A DNA stretch of 64,000 nt from Promethearchaeota archaeon (GTDB taxonomy: Archaea > Asgardarchaeota > Lokiarchaeia > Sigyniarchaeales > SOKP01). Below are positions 37,967 to 47,878 of the stretch, one piece after another. The notes under the pieces were generated by a model. That model ran no database searches. It saw nothing but the letters and a program-made list of their open reading frames with translations, and was not told where the DNA came from. The DNA is taken from positions 96,001-160,000 of the forward strand of contig JAHPZJ010000030.1 in the NCBI GenBank assembly GCA_019058245.1. Reading direction: 5' to 3'. The position numbers and the translations under genes were made by a program. How positions within the stretch are numbered: position 1 is the stretch's first letter; each line of letters opens with the position of its first letter.

Positions 37967-39469
37967 CTAAAATCGAACTTTTATATCTCTCTTATGAAGA
38001 TAAGATTTTAAATCCTTGATTTTTATTGTCTTTGTATGGAACAAAGATGCTGCTAAGACCGCTTCTGCCCCAGCTTTAATAGCTTCATAAAAATGTTCAT
38101 AATTACCTGCTCCACCCGAAGCAATTAATGGTACTGATATCACATTGGTGAGATTTTGAATTAATTTAAAGTCATAACCTAATTGAGTCCCATCTCGATC
38201 CATACTAGTAACAAGTAGTTCCCCTGCACCCCTTTCAACAACTTCTTTTGCCCATTCTATTGCATCTAATCCTGTTGATTCTGTACCCGCCTTTATATAT
38301 ACTTCCCAAGTATCTGCTTTTTTCTTTACGTCAATTGCACACACAATAGACTGACTTCCAAACTTTTGAGCACCTTCAGTTATAACTTTGGGATTATCTA
38401 CGGCAGCAGTGTTAATACTTACTTTTTCTGCCCCTGTATTAATGATATTTGTTATATCATTCAAATTTCTAATACCGCCTCCTACTGTAAAAGGAATATA
38501 TACTTCTTCAGCAACCTTTCTCAAAGTTTGATACAATATTGATCGTTTTTCTAAGGTTGCAGAAATGTCTAGAAATACTAATTCATCCGCACCTTCTGAA
38601 TTATAGAATCTAGATAATTCTACAGGGTCTCCACTATCCTTCAAGTTGAGGTATTGTACACCCTTTACTACTCTTCCATCTTTAATATCAAGGCATGGCA
38701 CTATCCTTTTTGCTAAATTGGTTGGGTCATACTTTTTTGTTAAATCTCTTAAATTTTTATTACTTAATTTATTACTATAAAACGCTTTTCCAATAATAAC
38801 ACCATCTGCATAGTGTAGAACTTGATTAATATCATTTAAATTGCTTATTCCACCAGAAGCAATTACTTTGGTGTCTGGATGTTTAATATTTGAAATATTC
38901 TTGTATATCTCAAAATTAGGGCCTTCTAAAGTTCCATCACGTGATACATCGGTTATTATAAAGTTTGAAACACCTTGTTCTTCTAAATTCTTAAACTGAG
39001 ATTCTAAAGTAATATTTGTATCTTCAAGCCAACCCTTTATCCTCAAATTACCATTGAGAACATCTAGTGCAACTATTATATCATTATTATATTTTTTCAT
39101 TAAATTCCTAAAAAGAGTTTGATTTTCAATAGCAATAGTCCCAATAATAACCTTATAAAGCCCTAGACCTAATAATTCTCTAATAGTTCTTTCAGTCCTG
39201 ATTCCCCCTCCTAGTTGAATTTTTGAGCCCCATTTCTTACTTTCTTCTATCAAAGATCTTATAACTTCATAATTTGGTCCATTCTCAAATTCACCTGATT
39301 TTGCTCCATTTAAATTTATAACGTGTATCTGCTCGATCCCTTGATTAAAAAAATTCTTAAGTAATTCAACAGGTCTTTTAGAATAATTATTAATTTTATC
39401 AAAATCTCCTTTATATAACCTAACAACATTACCATTTAACAAATCAATAGCAGGAATTATTTTTTTCAT
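37967..39469 (-). CDS. hisA-hisF: Fused HisA (ProFAR isomerase) - HisF (imidazole glycerol phosphate synthase cyclase subunit)
   Basis: N-half [27 protein letters not shown]; C-half [34 protein letters not shown]. Confidence 0.94.
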
Positions 39470-39476
39470 ATTATAA

Positions 39477-40070
39477 TCACCTCTTTATCAAGGAAATGAA
39501 ATATTTAATAATTCTATCACCTGCATCTTGACTTTTTTCTGGATGAAATTGGGTAGCTATTACGTGATCTTTTAGGATTATAACTGGAATAGAGATCCCA
39601 TGATTTACATAAGAGATTATAGTATTTTTATCATTGGGATTACAATAATATGAATGGTTAAAATAAACATAACCATAAAAATATGGTTTTGAAGATGGGA
39701 TTAATCTATTCCATCCAGTATGAGGAATTCTAATAGATTGATTTGGGGTTAATCTAATTACCTTTCCAGGGATGATATCTAATCCACTAATATCTAAAGA
39801 TTCTTCAGAATTTGAAAATAATAGTTGCATGCCTAAGCAGATACCCATTGTTGGAACAGTAAGAATAGAATCTTTTAATGGGGAGAACAATCCATTTTGT
39901 TTAAGTTCTTTAACAGCATCACCAAAAGCGCCTACTCCAGGGAGAATCAAACCTTTAGATTTCTCTATTAAATCTAGATCTCTTGAAATAATGACATCCG
40001 GATAAAATCTTTGAACACTTTTTTGAATCGACCGAAGATTGCCACTACCATAATCTATTATAGTAATCAT
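39477..40070 (-). CDS. hisH: Imidazole glycerol phosphate synthase glutaminase subunit
   Basis: IIDYGSGNL, PGVGAF, GICLGMQ, PHTGWN, QFHPEKS; start moved to ATG 40070. Confidence 0.95.
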   Translation of the reverse strand: MITIIDYGSGNLRSIQKSVQRFYPDVIISRDLDLIEKSKGLILPGVGAFGDAVKELKQNGLFSPLKDSILTVPTMGICLGMQLLFSNSEESLDISGLDIIPGKVIRLTPNQSIRIPHTGWNRLIPSSKPYFYGYVYFNHSYYCNPNDKNTIISYVNHGISIPVIILKDHVIATQFHPEKSQDAGDRIIKYFISLIKR

Positions 40071-40083
40071 GTTAAATACCAAA

Positions 40084-40689
40084 TTACAATATTCCTTTAC
40101 TTGAAGGAAGTTTTCGATTCCCTTTTGAATCAATTCTAGTGCTATAATCCAATGCTTTACCTAGAGATTTAAATATTGCTTCTGCAATATGATGGTTATT
40201 TTTACCATAGAGAACTCTAACATGGAGTGTTATTTGGGCATTAATTGAAAATGTATATAAAAAATGCTCTATTAAATCGACTGGGATTAAATTATCCTCC
40301 TTCGATCCTATAAACGGATTTGTCCAATTGATTTGCTTTTTAAAAAATGGTCTTGAAGAGATATCGATGGCAACAAATGCGAGGCACTCATCCATAGGAA
40401 AAAAACAATGTCCAACTCGTGTAATTCCAATTTTATTTCCTAAGGCTTTATTAAAAACTTTACCTAATACAATGGAGGTATCTTCAATGAGGTGATGATT
40501 ATCAACATTAAGATCACCCTCCGCAAAAATATTCATATCAAATTTTCCGTGAATAGCAATTTGGGTAAGAAGATGATCAAAAATACCGATTGAAGTCTCA
40601 ATTTTACAATCACCAACTCCATCAATATTAATTTCAATATTAATGCTTGTTTCCTTGGTTTTTCTTTCTAATTTAGCTTTTCTTTCCAT
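40084..40689 (-). CDS. hisB: Imidazoleglycerol-phosphate dehydratase (monofunctional)
   Basis: RKTKET, FDHLL, HH.IED, PMDE, NNHHIAE; ATG 40689 after GAGGAG. Confidence 0.96.
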   Translation of the reverse strand: MERKAKLERKTKETSINIEINIDGVGDCKIETSIGIFDHLLTQIAIHGKFDMNIFAEGDLNVDNHHLIEDTSIVLGKVFNKALGNKIGITRVGHCFFPMDECLAFVAIDISSRPFFKKQINWTNPFIGSKEDNLIPVDLIEHFLYTFSINAQITLHVRVLYGKNNHHIAEAIFKSLGKALDYSTRIDSKGNRKLPSSKGIL

Positions 40690-40690
40690 T

Positions 40691-41824
40691 TTAATTCTCC
40701 TCAAAATATGATTTTAATATTTCTATTACCTTTTTCATTTGTAAACTTGTACCTATTGAGATTCTCAAGCAATTTGAGAGTTCTGCTGTATAATTTCTTA
40801 CTTTAATTTTATTATTCAATAAATATTGATAAACTGAATCTGAAATTTCAGATGATTCAAATCTTAATAAAATAAAATTTGTCTGACTTGGATGTATATA
40901 AAAAATCTTATTATTCTTTCTTAAATTAAGAAGGTCCTTAAAAAATTCTTCTCGAATAGATATGATTTTTTTAATATTTGCTGAAATTTCATCTTTTTTA
41001 TCTAATAATAATAAACCATATTGCAAAGCTACATTATTTACATTAAAAGGGCTTTTTATACGAATTAATATTTCATTAATGGAAGGATTTGATATTGTAT
41101 AACCTAATCTTAATCCTGCGAGAGAATAAGACTTGCTAAATGATCGAGAGATAATTAAATTATCATAAGATTTGATTAAATCTACTGCACTCAGACCATC
41201 ACTGAAATCAATATAAGCTTCATCAATAATTACTAATTTTTTCAACATTAAAAGTTGTTTAATAAAATCAAGAGAGATTAACATTCCATCTGGATTATTT
41301 GGTCTAGATAAGATAATAATATTTGATGATTTAGCCCTCTTCATAAAATTGAGTTGATCTAAATCATATTCTGCAATACCCGTTGTTTCATTTATTGATA
41401 ATCTTAGCGGAAATGATTCATACTTTGCACCATTTATATTCGCAAAAAATTTATACATTGAAAACGTTGGATCAATGCTTAAAATAGTGGTTTTAGGTGT
41501 GGCATAGATCTTAATGATAAGACCTATAATTTCATTAGAGCCTGTTCCTGCTAAGAGATATGAAATAGGTAATTCTAGATCCTTTGATAGCTTATCTAAA
41601 AATGTATTAGCATTCAAATCTGGATAATTTTTTAAAATATTTAATGATTTTAAATTTGCTAAATCTCCTAAAGGTGGTACAAAAGGACTTTCATTTTTAT
41701 CTAAAAATATCATCTCATTTTCCTGGCTCGATTTATCTAAATATGAAAGTGAATCAAAATTTTGAGAATCTAAGTACTTCCTAATAATTTTAGAAGGCTT
41801 AATAGTGTAATTTTTTTTATCCAA
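40691..41824 (-). CDS. hisC: Histidinol-phosphate aminotransferase
   Basis: LDKNESP, PNNP.G, DEAY, RSFSKSYSLAGLRLG, RISIG. Confidence 0.93.
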   Translation of the reverse strand: MDKKNYTIKPSKIIRKYLDSQNFDSLSYLDKSSQENEMIFLDKNESPFVPPLGDLANLKSLNILKNYPDLNANTFLDKLSKDLELPISYLLAGTGSNEIIGLIIKIYATPKTTILSIDPTFSMYKFFANINGAKYESFPLRLSINETTGIAEYDLDQLNFMKRAKSSNIIILSRPNNPDGMLISLDFIKQLLMLKKLVIIDEAYIDFSDGLSAVDLIKSYDNLIISRSFSKSYSLAGLRLGYTISNPSINEILIRIKSPFNVNNVALQYGLLLLDKKDEISANIKKIISIREEFFKDLLNLRKNNKIFYIHPSQTNFILLRFESSEISDSVYQYLLNNKIKVRNYTAELSNCLRISIGTSLQMKKVIEILKSYFEEN

Positions 41825-43156
41825 TTAACGCCCCTCCTTTACATTTTTATTTAAAGCTGTCCTTAAAGCTGCCGCATTTGCATGTCCTGTTAGGTCTTCA
41901 GATTTTGCTATTATTTCAGCATGTTCAGATAATCTAAAAGCTGTTTCTTCATTTAAATAGACATAACTAATCCTTTTAATAAAATCATAAACTGATAAAG
42001 CAGATGAAAAGCGAGCTGTGCCATTTGTCGGCATCACATGACTAGGTCCTGCTATATAGTCACCTAAAACTTCAAAGGAGTTTTCTCCTATAAAAATCCC
42101 TCCTGCATTTTCTATTTTATCTAAAACTGTCATAGGCTCTTTAATCATAAGAGATAAATGTTCAGGTGCAAATTCATTTGAAATTTGTATTGATTCTTCT
42201 ATTGAATTTGTTAAAACAATACCACCATTGCTTTGAATTGATTCTTTAATAATAGATTTTCCTTTCAGAGTTATAATTTGCCTTTCTAACTCTTTTTTCA
42301 CAGATGAAATTAAATTTTCAGATGAAGTAACTAAGATAGGAATAGCTAAAATATCGTGTTCTGCTTGTGCTAATAGATCTGAAGCAACTAATGAGGGATT
42401 TGCTGTTTCATCAGCAATTACCAATGCTTCAGTAGGTCCATATATCCCATCAATTCCCACTGTTCCATAAACTTCCTTCTTTGCTAAATTTACATAGATA
42501 TTTCCAGGTCCTACGATTTTATCCACTCTAGGAATTTGTTCCGTTCCAAATGCCATAGCTGCAATAGCTTGAGCTCCACCTATCCTAAAAATTCTTATAT
42601 TGATATCATACTTCTTGATTAACCCAAAAGTTGCGAGGATAATGTTTGGTAAAGTACCTTGCTTATTGGGAGGAGAAGTAAATATTATATTTTTAACTCC
42701 TGCTACTATGGCTGGTATAGTTGCCATTAAAATTGAAGAAAATAGAGGAGCTATTCCTCCTGGAATATATATTCCAACTGTTTCAATAGGTTTTATGATT
42801 TGACCTATTTGACCGCCAAGGTTATAATTCATCCAAGAGATGATAGGTTGAAATTTATGAAAATTATAAATTCTCTCACATGCAATTTCTAAAGCTTTTC
42901 TTAACTTAGGATTAATAGAACTCAGATATTTTTCAAAATCAACATCTAATAATTCAAATTGTTCAATATCTACTTTATCTAACTTTAATGTCCAATCTTT
43001 AAGTGCTGCGTCTTTTCTTTCCTTGACATCTTTTACAATGACTTTTACACTTTCCTCTGGAGTAATATCTTCACTTTTAGACATTTCATTTAAAGTAGTA
43101 AAATATCTATTTAATATAGTATTTCTAGCTTCATCAACTGTATAAGTTTTAATCAT
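41825..43156 (-). CDS. hisD: Histidinol dehydrogenase
   Basis: YIPGG, GGAQAIAA.A.GT, GPGN.YV, DLLAQAEH, APEHL, GDY.AGPSHVMPT. Confidence 0.96.
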   Translation of the reverse strand: MIKTYTVDEARNTILNRYFTTLNEMSKSEDITPEESVKVIVKDVKERKDAALKDWTLKLDKVDIEQFELLDVDFEKYLSSINPKLRKALEIACERIYNFHKFQPIISWMNYNLGGQIGQIIKPIETVGIYIPGGIAPLFSSILMATIPAIVAGVKNIIFTSPPNKQGTLPNIILATFGLIKKYDINIRIFRIGGAQAIAAMAFGTEQIPRVDKIVGPGNIYVNLAKKEVYGTVGIDGIYGPTEALVIADETANPSLVASDLLAQAEHDILAIPILVTSSENLISSVKKELERQIITLKGKSIIKESIQSNGGIVLTNSIEESIQISNEFAPEHLSLMIKEPMTVLDKIENAGGIFIGENSFEVLGDYIAGPSHVMPTNGTARFSSALSVYDFIKRISYVYLNEETAFRLSEHAEIIAKSEDLTGHANAAALRTALNKNVKEGR

Positions 43157-44168
43157 TATACATCCCCAAATTCTTTAATAATTTAATATATCTCAAAGGT
43201 TCTTCCTCAAAAATATAGAGTGTGGGAGCGACAACTACACCACTTCCTCCAATTGCTCTTAAACTTCTTATTGCTTTTTGTAATTTTTCCTTCTCAACTA
43301 TTACATGAATAGCATACATTTTTTCTCCACTTTTTGTAAAGACTGATGAGATTGTAGGTCCTTGAAGGCCTTCAAGTCCCTTTTTAGAAAAGACATTATT
43401 AGCAATTTCCTCTGGGCTTTCTCCTCTCATGTTTACAAAAACTGATACAAAATTTTGAGCTCTTAAAGTAGCTTCAATAAATTCAATCAATTGACGAGCA
43501 ACTTTTAAAACAGTCTCATTTTTTAAAGCAGTTTGATTTCCAATAAGTACCGACTCAGATGTCATTATTTTTCCACCATTAATTCTTTTTAAACGATTAT
43601 CCTTTAAAGTTTGTCCTGTTGATACAAGATCAACTATGATATCACTATAACCTAGCTCAGGATATACCTCAATAGAGCCATTACCTTTAATTAACTCATA
43701 CTCAATATCAAGGGAACTCAAAAACTGTTTAGTAAGTTTTGTAAATTTAGTAGCGACTCTAAGTGATTTCTTATTTATCTTTATCTCTTCAATTGATTCT
43801 TCTGTCCAATCTTCAGGAACTGCTATTTCAAGGCTGCATTTTCCAAAATTTAATGCATTGTGCATAATTACTAACTCATTTTCATTTAAAGGTGTATATT
43901 CAAGCACTAGATCATAACCAACTATACCCATTTCTAAAGACCCATTCAACACGCCTCTAACAATATCTACTTGTCGTTGATAAACCAATTGAAGATTAAT
44001 GAGTCCTTGGATTGATCCGATATATTGTCTATTGTTTCTTTGTATATTAAAGCCGCAACTTCTTAAAAATTCTTGAGTTTCGATTTCCATTCTTCCCTTC
44101 GAAGGAATTGCTAATCTTACTTGACGAGATTTATATTTTGGAAATATTTTTTGTAGATCTTCTTTCAT
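43149..44168 (-). CDS. hisG: ATP phosphoribosyltransferase, long form
   Basis: [34 protein letters not shown]; C-terminal regulatory domain. Confidence 0.96.
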
Positions 44169-45073
44169 CTATTTCTCCTCCTTAATTCGGTGATTATTTC
44201 TTCAGGTTTAATTTTTTTGGTAGCCATTAATACAAGAATAAAATAAGTTACGTCAGCTATTTCCCAAATTAAGTTGTCCCTATCGGTATAATTTATCACT
44301 TCGGTACACTCTTCCTCAATTTTAGACATTAATAATTCATTATTTTCTGCAAGTTTTTTACTATAAGATTCATTTACACTATAATTTTCAATTCTATCAA
44401 TTATTAAATCATAGAGAAATTTTATAGAAAATTTCTGATCCTGAAAACAAGAATAAGAACCTTTATGACAAGCAAAACCTTTTTGTTTTACTCTAAATAA
44501 TAAAGTATCTGCATCACAATCGTATAAAATTTTCTTTATAATTTGATAATTCCCTGATTCTTCGCCTTTTATCCATAGTCGGTTTCTTGATCTGCTGAAG
44601 TAAGTTGATCTTCTAGTTTTGATTGTTTGTTTCAAAGACTCTTTTGATGAATATGCGAGCATTAGAACATTATCATCGAGATCTTGAACTATTGTTGGAA
44701 TCAATCCATTTCCTTTATCAAAATCTAAAATATTAAACAAAATATTATCTATCAATGAATAATCTTTAATTGAGTTAAAACTTAAAATTTCATCATTTTT
44801 ATGAGATTGTGGATTATATTTTATCATTCCCTTTTCTGTTATTAAATCATTCAATTCTTTTTGATTAATTTCTGAATCATTCCATATTTTAACCTTTTTA
44901 GAAACTCTCTTAAGCATATCACTCTTTATCAGTGCAATAAGACTTTCCTTACTAGCTTCAAGAACAAGAATCATAAACAGATCCCAATTTCGTTTTATAT
45001 ATACTCCATCTATAAACTCTTTTAAGCTTCCAAGCGTTTTCATATCCTTCATATTAATTTTTAATATTATCAT
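44165..45073 (-). CDS. hisIE: Bifunctional PR-AMP cyclohydrolase / PR-ATP pyrophosphatase with about 110-aa N-terminal extension
   Basis: [32 protein letters not shown]; KIEEE..E, WEIAD. Confidence 0.93.
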
Positions 45074-45079
45074 AATTAT

Positions 45080-45167
45080 TCCCCCAAACTAAAATTGAAT
45101 TTAGTTTGATTTAAATCCGATGAATAAAAGATACCTTATACTATATTAATTCATCGGAATTATTCAT
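45080..45167 (-). promoter_or_regulatory. Putative his attenuator RNA structures
   Basis: 10-bp inverted repeat TCCGATGAAT (45116-45125 / 45149-45158); competing 8-bp pairing 45120-45127 / 45160-45167; 9-bp hairpin 45085-45093 / 45100-45108 touching the GGGGGA SD (45080-45085) of hisIE. Confidence 0.65.
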
Positions 45168-45324
45168 GATGTAGCCAATGATGCAAGTATGAATTACGGG
45201 TTTTAAAACAATCACCTCTCACATCATTCGATTTAATAACAAGATTGTTATTAAAGTTATTTATAATAAAGAAACTCAATTTAGAAAGACATTGGTTAAG
45301 AACATTTTTTCTATTAAAATCCAT
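45160..45324 (-). CDS. Putative histidine leader peptide (54 aa; 20 aa if started at GTG 45222)
   Basis: MDFNRKNVLNQCLSKLSFFIINNFNNNLVIKSNDVRGDCFKTRNSYLHHWLHHE*; all four His codons at 45166-45183; stop 86 nt upstream of hisIE; AAGTGA before the ATG. Confidence 0.75.
   Translation of the reverse strand: MDFNRKNVLNQCLSKLSFFIINNFNNNLVIKSNDVRGDCFKTRNSYLHHWLHHE
45232..45255. repeat. 24-bp near-perfect palindrome in the his upstream region
   Basis: TTTAATAACAA-GA-TTGTTATTAAA. Confidence 0.7.
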
Positions 45325-45571
45325 ACCAAATTCACTTTTATTGAGTTCTTTTTATCAAAGCCAGAGTTATTCGGCTTATATCAATTTATTATATAATTTA
45401 TGGAAAAGAACCTAAAAAAGTTTTCTATTATTTAGTTCTAAAAAAATCAAGGTTTTGTTTGATCTTGTTAAATTTTTTCAATTCTCAAGCAGAAATATAA
45501 ATTTTAACATATAAAAGGATCTAATAAAATAAAATCTTATTTCAATAAGGGAAATTATAAGAACTGTAAAC

Positions 45572-46009
45572 TTAGATTCTCATTTTATATAATTCTTTAT
45601 CTGGAATATAACTCATCATAATTAAATCGTCTCGGATTTCCCATCCTAAATTCTGATAAAATTCAACGACATTTTTATTGTATTTTTCGATAAATAAATG
45701 GATTTTATGTACTCGTAATTCACGAAATTTCTCGATTAATGCATCCATTATTTTTTTCCCATATCCCTTTTTTTGATAATCTGGATCTACAGCAAGATGA
45801 TGGACATAACCTCTCCTTCCATCGAACCCTCCAATCACAACGCTAATTATTTTATTGTTAATCTTTCCAATTAAGAAAAGATCAGGATTACGTTGAAGCA
45901 TTTTGTTAATTTCTTCTAATATATCAGAAGAGCCTACATTGATTCCAGCTTTTCTCCAGAGTGCCACAATTTCCTCATAATAATCTATAGTAAATTTTTC
46001 AATCTTCAT
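45572..46009 (-). CDS. GNAT family acetyltransferase (YpeA-like)
   Basis: GGFDGRRGYVHHLAVDPDYQKKGYG, N..V..FY..LG. Confidence 0.9.
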   Translation of the reverse strand: MKIEKFTIDYYEEIVALWRKAGINVGSSDILEEINKMLQRNPDLFLIGKINNKIISVVIGGFDGRRGYVHHLAVDPDYQKKGYGKKIMDALIEKFRELRVHKIHLFIEKYNKNVVEFYQNLGWEIRDDLIMMSYIPDKELYKMRI

Positions 46010-46204: not shown

Positions 46205-47878
46205 ATGAGTGATGATTTAAAAGCAATTAAAGAAATCTCAAAACTTACAGGAAAGGAATTAAAAAAAATTCACGACGATTTTTATGAACGTAATTTAGAT
46301 AATGCTGAATTTGTTTATTATCTTCAAGAAGATAATGTAATATATATAGGTATTAATTTCTATTATTTAGATTTGTCTGAGAAAGATCTACAAAAAGTAT
46401 ATGACTCTGTGAGCAATCTTAAATCTCTAAAGGGTTTAAGTCTTAAATATAAAGTGATTGATAAAGTTCCAGATTTTATTAGAAATTTCAAAGATTTAGA
46501 ATCATTAAACCTTTCGGACAACCATTTAAAATCATTACCTGAATGGATGGGAGAGCTTAAAAATTTGAACATTCTTAATCTAGAATCTAATGAATTAGCA
46601 TCTATACCTGATTGGATGAAGGAACTTAACAACTTATCTCATCTTAATGTGCAAAATAATAATTTGAATTTTTTACCAGAATGGTTAGGAAATTTAGAGA
46701 ATCTAAAAACCTTGAAAGTGGTATTTAATAATCTTGAATGGAATGATATGAGTCTCAATGTATTAAAAAGTGTTTTTAAAAGAGGAGGTACCATATTCGC
46801 ACCAAATATACTTCAGTTTCAAGCAATACATGATCTCCCTAAAGAAAAGATTGAGATCATACGTGAAATTGAAAAAGATACCATTGAAGATGAAAAAAAG
46901 GGTAGGATATCTAGGTTACCAATAAAAGTAGAAGATGGCAAAGTTACGGAGTGGAAATTTGTTGGGTATGGCATTAAATCCTTACCAGAGAATTTTGGAA
47001 TTTTTAATAATCTAAAATCATTGATAATTTCGCGTAATCAAATCGAAGCGTTGCCAGAGTCTTTTGGAGAATTAAAAGATTTAGAGTTTCTCGATTTATC
47101 TAGTAATAAATTAACTACTTTGCCAGAATCTTTTGTTAATTTAACGTCGATTAATAATCTTAATCTTAATAATAACCAATTTATTGAGATCCCTACACAA
47201 TTATGGGCACTTAAAGAACTTACTGATTTAGATTTATCCAACAATCCTCTTAATCCTGAAGAAATGGTTGTTTCACAAAAAGTTCCAGATTTAATTAGAG
47301 AATACCTTAGAGTGAAAGCTACAATAATAGTTTTTATATCTCACGCAGTTCTCGATTTTGAGCCTTATCGCATAGAAGAGCTTGTAAAATACTTGGAAAA
47401 ACAAAAAGAAATATCTCAAGTATTTTTTTGTGAGTCAGATCTTGCTGGTAATATTGATGAGTGGATGCTAAATGCTGTGCAAAAGAGTCAACTAATTTTA
47501 TTTATTGGAACTAATAAATCAGTTTTTAATTCCGTAGATTGTACCAATGAACTGCAACTCGCTGATAAATTCTCTATTCCAGTCATTCCCCTAAAAGGTA
47601 AAGATATAAACTGGCCAGATTTAGCGGATATAAACCTTTCTCGGGAATTAGGATTAGAATATGATATTGATAACTTCGACCAATTTTGCTCTGATGTATA
47701 CAAGTACATAGAAAATTTCAAGCGGGAAATAAACCTAATGGAAAAAGAGGAACGTCGATTAGGTATTATAGATATTTATGAACGATTTCGGTTAATTTTA
47801 GATGATAGTCTAAGTGATATCAAAAGAAAATTGGATGAATTAGAAAAGAGAATTGCTCAACTTGAAACCAAGAATTAA
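46205..47878 (+). CDS. Leucine-rich repeat protein with C-terminal TIR domain and coiled coil
   Basis: Two blocks of 23-aa LRRs (LxLxxNxLxxLPExxGxLxxL); VFISHA..., S..C.NELQLA, IPVIPL (TIR); terminal heptads. Confidence 0.88.
   Translation: MSDDLKAIKEISKLTGKELKKIHDDFYERNLDNAEFVYYLQEDNVIYIGINFYYLDLSEKDLQKVYDSVSNLKSLKGLSLKYKVIDKVPDFIRNFKDLESLNLSDNHLKSLPEWMGELKNLNILNLESNELASIPDWMKELNNLSHLNVQNNNLNFLPEWLGNLENLKTLKVVFNNLEWNDMSLNVLKSVFKRGGTIFAPNILQFQAIHDLPKEKIEIIREIEKDTIEDEKKGRISRLPIKVEDGKVTEWKFVGYGIKSLPENFGIFNNLKSLIISRNQIEALPESFGELKDLEFLDLSSNKLTTLPESFVNLTSINNLNLNNNQFIEIPTQLWALKELTDLDLSNNPLNPEEMVVSQKVPDLIREYLRVKATIIVFISHAVLDFEPYRIEELVKYLEKQKEISQVFFCESDLAGNIDEWMLNAVQKSQLILFIGTNKSVFNSVDCTNELQLADKFSIPVIPLKGKDINWPDLADINLSRELGLEYDIDNFDQFCSDVYKYIENFKREINLMEKEERRLGIIDIYERFRLILDDSLSDIKRKLDELEKRIAQLETKN

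Follow-up and report, generated by a model that had tools for sequence, protein, structure and literature searches.

A short open reading frame before an Asgard archaeal his operon as a probable histidine-sensing leader

Results

The his operon and the short frame in front of it

The window, that is, the whole stretch of 64,000 nucleotides that was analysed (positions 96,001 to 160,000 of contig JAHPZJ010000030.1 from a Promethearchaeota archaeon), carries a complete his operon in the gene order hisIE-G-D-C-B-H-AF, as assigned by Pfam. Operon and leader lie on the minus strand, and all coordinates are those of the window unless a contig is named. The first gene, and the first that would be regulated, is hisIE (PRA-CH plus PRA-PH domains, 44165-45073), followed by hisG, hisD, hisC, hisB, hisH and a fused hisA-hisF (37967-44168). 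The fusion forms one ORF of 500 residues with two His_biosynth domains (37967-39469). At its N terminus, HisIE is extended by about 105 residues that lack a Pfam match, and by about 200 in the leaderless relatives. The HisG of the window (43149-44168) scores 257 bits against PDB 6czl, which we take to be a plant enzyme, and 112 bits against 2vd3, presumably a methanogen enzyme. A second hisG, 26% identical, is found on contig C25 of the same genome; together, these scores and the second copy suggest that the operon may have been acquired. The host genome encodes aCPSF1/FttA, and a PF09021 search of this 76%-complete genome found no member of the HutP family. On the plus strand, 46205-47878 encodes a protein of 557 residues that, judged by eye from the translation, combines leucine-rich repeats with a TIR-like segment at its C terminus.

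Upstream of hisIE, a small gene without annotation, which gene callers predicted on some contigs, occupies 45324-45160. It has 54 codons, from ATG 45324 to the TAA at 45162-45160, within a stop-to-stop frame of 63 codons; the peptide ends in SYLHHWLHHE and has no Pfam match. An earlier note, made from the letters of this DNA, had described the frame with its HHWLHHE end, its only four His codons, all CAT, and its place directly upstream of the his operon. Sequence and translation bear this out, the CAT codons being at 45183, 45180, 45171 and 45168 and the stop lying 86 nt 5′ of the hisIE ATG at 45073. Codon reading and comparison with relatives point to His-His-Trp-Leu-His-His (45166-45183) as the sensing codons, hereafter region 1. 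The exclusive use of CAT is uninformative because CAT makes up 85% of the His codons of the genome (9200 vs 1574 CAC), and CAC is partly used for His in the leaders of relatives G086, G148 and G046. At a composition of 26% GC, the chance of at least four His in seven codons is about 1e-5 and that of a 54-codon open frame about 0.008. At least four His in the last ten codons are found in 2 of the 5219 intergenic short frames of the genome, the leader included.

Conservation across Asgard genomes

Is the His cluster kept elsewhere? A search for His-clustered short ORFs before the his operons of other Asgard genomes, which the earlier note had proposed, found them at about 30 loci: besides the host, 20 Asgard species genomes have the cluster at this position, as do 12 of 12 further contigs fetched via HisG, one of which probably duplicates G131 while another carries three His. 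The 21 genomes with a leader, host included, comprise 16 with hisIE as first gene, three with hisC first and two from outside the class. The frame stops 75-92 nt 5′ of hisIE in the 15 other species genomes of the family. It stands before hisC in the three genomes of other gene order (ending in HHHHMHHHC in G078 and in HHHKQHS in G080 and G082), and before hisIE in the two outside the class (HHHHIHHHL in G215, HHHH in G174). No His leader was found in nine genomes whose related operon has a long HisIE and scant space upstream, in three operons headed by a hisG of the window type, or in 16 operons headed by the other hisG type or by hisD. Judged from this distribution, the leader travels with one operon type and was lost or never gained in some lineages. 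A metagenome scan with a HisIE query returned no matches.

The G078 locus occurs in four metatranscriptome contig sets of one study, where two contigs run from the leader into the start of hisC and two more lie mostly over the leader region. Starts, ends, strand and level are unreadable from these contigs, one is chimeric and a DNA origin is possible; they were kept out of the evidence. In the G078 leader itself (L071:4221-4440), the His codons pair directly with ATGATGAT, which follows the stop. Farther on is a hairpin followed by eight U; a hairpin plus U8 is seen solely in this distant leader. By sequence, its layout is closer to a classical terminator than that of the window's leader.

Translation signals, promoter and coding pattern

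The earlier note had left the start ambiguous between ATG 45324 and GTG 45222. Comparison with relatives favours the former: its column is ATG or TTG in the core clade, and the GTGA before it and in-frame indels after it are conserved, whereas most relatives have GTA or GTT at GTG 45222. A Met-Met-stop mini-ORF overlapping the latter (ATGATGTGA, 45227-45219) and an internal GAGGTGA (45218-45212), both pointed out before, are indeed present, but neither is conserved, and GAGGTGA has no start codon at the usual spacing. GTG 45222, the mini-ORF and the internal GAGGTGA were thus ruled out as functional elements. The AAGTGA that had been noticed upstream of ATG 45324 is there at 45337-45332, and its GTGA column, about 10-11 nt before the ATG, is conserved, which places the leader ribosome-binding site at 45331-45337. 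Throughout the host genome, GTGA is most frequent at -13 to -9 relative to ATGs. The anti-SD GATCACCTCC was found at the 16S tail of three relatives, from which it was read, the 16S rRNA not being assembled in the host genome. For hisIE, the ribosome-binding site is a conserved G-run before the ATG (45081-45085).

Farther upstream, the motif AACTTTTTTAG (45412-45423) is a candidate promoter (BRE/TATA-like) on the grounds of its conservation: it is exact or near-exact at 18 of 28 loci, including loci with a divergent upstream gene. No enrichment of the motif before genes was seen genome-wide. The conserved helix P1, described below, uses bases upstream of ATG 45324, which implies that the transcript should begin above 45348 and not below 45183, the first His codon.

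The His frame is open over 38-77 codons in 16 of 16 genomes, the other two frames being much shorter in most, and the leader lengths of 36, 45, 48, 53 and 54 codons are separated by whole-codon indels. Differences fall on the three codon positions in the proportions 0.38/0.30/0.32; of the single-base differences, 714 are nonsynonymous and 195 synonymous. The start, the reading frame, the His cluster and the place of the stop are conserved while the peptide sequence drifts, and the conserved stretches coincide with arms of RNA helices. By these measures, the amino acids of the leader are without purifying selection, the pattern of a cis-acting leader and not of a working small protein.

Conserved helices in the leader RNA

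A consensus fold of 12 homologues with RNAalifold gave four helices (P1, P2, 2:3 and 4:5), to which P0 was added. P1 (45348-45339 with 45281-45272) encloses the ribosome-binding site and start of the leader. Two more lie inside the ORF: P2 (45256-45247 with 45240-45231), with two-sided changes at three pairs, and P0, formed by 45228-45218 and the stretch of the first His codons (45187-45177). Hairpin 2:3 (45162-45149 with 45125-45112), also with two-sided changes at three pairs, starts at the leader stop codon, 21-24 nt past the first His. Hairpin 4:5 (45108-45100 with 45093-45085), paired in 100% of cells and with a G-C/A-U swap, abuts the hisIE ribosome-binding site and ends on its first G. 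Taken together, the five helices have 95.8% of cells paired and two-sided changes in 9 of 49 pairs; slid controls reach 27-44%, and 0 of 500 shuffles were as high, a count that overstates significance because the sequences are related. In P0, 2:3 and 4:5, own partners pair better than swapped ones (for P0, -12.3 kcal/mol cognate vs -10.1 partner-permuted). P0 is deleted in G131.

Leaders matched to the Leu, Arg and Trp pathways

A scan of the short frames of the host genome, run blind to annotation, returned the Leu, Arg and Trp frames described below. Across relatives, the mean count of the cognate amino acid in the last ten codons was 4.7 His before his (19 loci), 3.8 Arg before argJ (9 loci) and 7.9 Leu before leuA (30 loci), while His averaged 1.0 before argJ and 0.4 before leuA. 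Phe also reaches 3.6 before argJ, from U-rich frames, and the Arg case is therefore less clean. In the window, the Arg leader (26484/26505-26591, plus strand) ends in ARRRRLLIY, with four Arg encoded by CGT/CGC, and argJ-argB-argD-argC-argG begins 112 nt after it; 9 of 9 argJ loci have a frame of this kind, with 2-6 Arg. The Leu leader (L083:516-617, plus; contig C10, about 40915-41016) ends in LLSLLLLLLL, with nine Leu, 87 nt before leuA-leuC-leuD-leuB, and 5-9 Leu precede leuA at all 30 loci examined. In the host genome, a candidate Trp leader (L084; contig C6, about 120951, minus) ends in FRWHWSWRA, 186 nt before trpD of the trp operon. As far as sequence can tell, this pathway matching is the strongest argument against both chance and a His-specific RNA-binding protein.

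A second Trp-rich short ORF, SWFWVLHWHA (L084; contig C6, about 112169, minus), has a similar GC-rich hairpin at its stop and is followed, after 212 nt, by the gene of a GNAT-methyltransferase fusion that lies just past the trp operon; this ORF may be an orphaned or captured leader. Two Cys-rich short frames, MLCSCCR (L085; contig C29, 17197, minus) and one ending in LFCCFCS (L086; contig C13, 27958, minus), precede genes without clear family by 97 and 124 nt respectively. They are possible Cys leaders or chance.

Search for the OFF structure

What could switch the operon off? No intrinsic terminator (GC-rich hairpin plus U run) was found in 44900-45700. If a ribosome covered region 2, the 5′ arm of hairpin 2:3, the loop and region 3 would be freed; a U4 run lies in this strand at just 11 of 28 loci, and a U-tract landing pad was rejected as not conserved. 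Blocking region 2 makes the opening of the hisIE SD-AUG costlier in 11 of 12 genomes (mean from 6.9 to 9.1 kcal/mol), an effect that shuffled sequence equals. An anti-SD helix between region 3 and the hisIE SD could form with 5-10 bp in each of the 12 core genomes, strikingly so in G115, G120 and G150; it was rejected for being no stronger than in shuffles (91/200), real exceeding shuffled in 4 of 12. Pairing of the His codons with the hisIE SD, also rejected, is weaker than in shuffles. With region 2 blocked, the consensus fold offers no alternative helix. Re-initiation from the leader stop to hisIE across two hairpins was rejected on logic, because expression would then rise when His is plentiful.

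Searching Rfam with the window's leader returned weak snoRNA matches alone (E 2.7-9.4) and no T-box or riboswitch; with the leaders of three relatives, nothing reached the gathering score.

Discussion

Leader-peptide attenuation is a textbook bacterial mechanism. A literature search, mainly of freely available papers, found no published archaeal leader-peptide attenuator. Archaeal Ribo-seq studies list uORFs and assign no amino-acid sensing to them (PMC7261190, PMC11456600, PMC10117724). From the sequence evidence above, the frame before hisIE is very probably a His-sensing leader, and we are nearly as confident that its translation makes it a sensor of histidyl-tRNA and a ribosome-dependent attenuator of the his operon.

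A model of how such a sensor would act is as follows. The ribosome would initiate at ATG 45324. When His-tRNA is scarce, it would stall at the first His-His pair; hairpin 2:3, 24 nt farther on, would then form and leave the operon ON. When His is plentiful, the ribosome would reach the stop and cover region 2, so that the loop and region 3, about 40 nt in all, would be single-stranded just 5′ of hairpin 4:5 and the hisIE ribosome-binding site, which would be the OFF state. With a footprint assumed to extend 12 nt beyond the A site, modelling predicts that hairpin 2:3 survives a stall at the first His pair and is disrupted once the ribosome is at the stop. Given a His sensor, analogy with bacterial leaders makes this sign, with hairpin 2:3 as ON, reasonably probable. 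Since RNA free of ribosomes takes the same fold as in the stalled state, a block of translation that can be reversed would be short-lived, and a decision during transcription is favoured; termination by aCPSF1/FttA would finalise it, acting either on the exposed strand or once initiation at hisIE has been delayed. In archaea, aCPSF1/FttA cleaves nascent RNA (PMC8116511). Under the favoured sign, we lean slightly towards an OFF state ended by FttA, a step put forward as a hypothesis because a conserved U-tract is absent. A reversible block of hisIE initiation alone is a less probable way to reach OFF, and some other step would be a surprise.

The same sensing step might also work with the opposite sign, which makes this a variant of the His sensor and no rival to it. 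The fold of the naked RNA (2:3 plus 4:5) would be OFF, and a stall on the last His would open 2:3 and turn hisIE translation ON, the arrangement of mycobacterial polycysteine leaders. Default-OFF folding is the usual logic of attenuators (bioRxiv 10.1101/834739), for most homologs the model has a ribosome on the last His reaching into region 2, and at least 80% of 23 sequences could form a 5-bp helix joining region 5 to the 3′ end of region 3. However, melting 2:3 makes the predicted opening of the SD costlier, not cheaper; the only His of the G148 leader are at -10, -9, -7 and -6, too far from the hairpin; and the early His pair is the most constant one. We regard this variant as rather unlikely.

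Other readings dispense with a ribosome that senses histidine. The CAU repeats could belong to a structured RNA bound by a histidine-activated protein of the HutP/TRAP kind, with the reading frame incidental, and indeed the His codons are paired in P0 and can pair with region 2, so that CAU could be kept for the sake of the RNA. Against this, conservation extends to the frame with its whole-codon indels, the start and the ribosome-binding site, CAT is replaced by CAC in the three relatives named above, the Leu, Arg and Trp leaders carry other, pathway-matched codons, and the HutP search of the 76%-complete genome was negative. This reading is very improbable. No more credible is a functional small His-rich protein, for example a metal-binding one, that is merely the first gene of the operon. 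Fifty-four codons are long for a leader and gene callers do predict the frame on some contigs, but its amino acids evolve without purifying selection, the peptide lacks a Pfam match and varies between 36 and 54 residues, its His run ranges from HHWLHH to H8, and the stretches that are conserved are helix arms. As for a chance frame in AT-rich intergenic DNA, with so many short frames in the genome and one other among them carrying four His in its last ten codons, a coincidence might be entertained for a single locus; conservation at about 30 loci, in two gene orders and in genomes outside the class, leaves it almost no credence.

How does the probable His sensor compare with known systems? The earlier note had called it hisL-type, which stands for the way the leader is proposed to work and fails for family membership, there being neither an Rfam match (His_leader is, we assume, RF00514) nor an intrinsic terminator. 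Like hisL of E. coli and Salmonella, it is a short ORF with a 3′ His cluster directly before the his operon, and the 5′ arm of the next hairpin begins at the leader stop (PMC3896937, PMC9413887). It differs in its archaeal host, in the absence, within the window's clade, of a hairpin-plus-U terminator, in the lack of an Rfam match, in the extra helices P1, P2 and P0 in the ORF, and in a last hairpin that abuts the hisIE SD. Moreover, the hisL peptide is short (<20 residues) with seven consecutive His, whereas the Asgard leaders have 36-54 codons and 3-8 partly interrupted His. His leader attenuators have been predicted in the Bacillus cereus group, Peptostreptococcaceae and Erysipelotrichales (PMC9413887, PMC2965389); these also have 3-5 His codons before alternative hairpins and arose outside Proteobacteria, but, unlike the Asgard leader, they use terminator/antiterminator pairs, a distinction drawn from their description. 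The nearest logic without a terminator is that of the mycobacterial polycysteine attenuator Ms5788A, which is leaderless and in which the stalled ribosome itself covers the anti-SD strand (bioRxiv 10.1101/834739); in contrast, the Asgard leader has its own SD, and its His codons do not pair with the hisIE SD. Within archaea, TrpY and Tar/TK0271 likewise exert amino-acid-dependent control of biosynthetic operons (PMC6737238), but they are DNA-binding proteins acting at initiation, whereas the Asgard element is an RNA/ORF in cis.

Tentatively, and with less confidence than any single step of the favoured model, the His, Leu, Arg and Trp leaders might form an Asgard family of ribosome-sensed attenuators in which aCPSF1/FttA, a homologue of the eukaryotic cleavage factor CPSF73, takes the place of an intrinsic terminator and is gated by the ribosome as it stalls or terminates. 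If the sensing step is true, the prokaryotes closest to eukaryotes regulate biosynthesis via the speed of ribosomes on upstream ORFs, and the leader would provide a natural reporter for archaeal transcription-translation coupling, an open question (PMC8116511). If the FttA-gated family is also true, attenuation in these archaea would be built on eukaryote-like translation and termination machinery.
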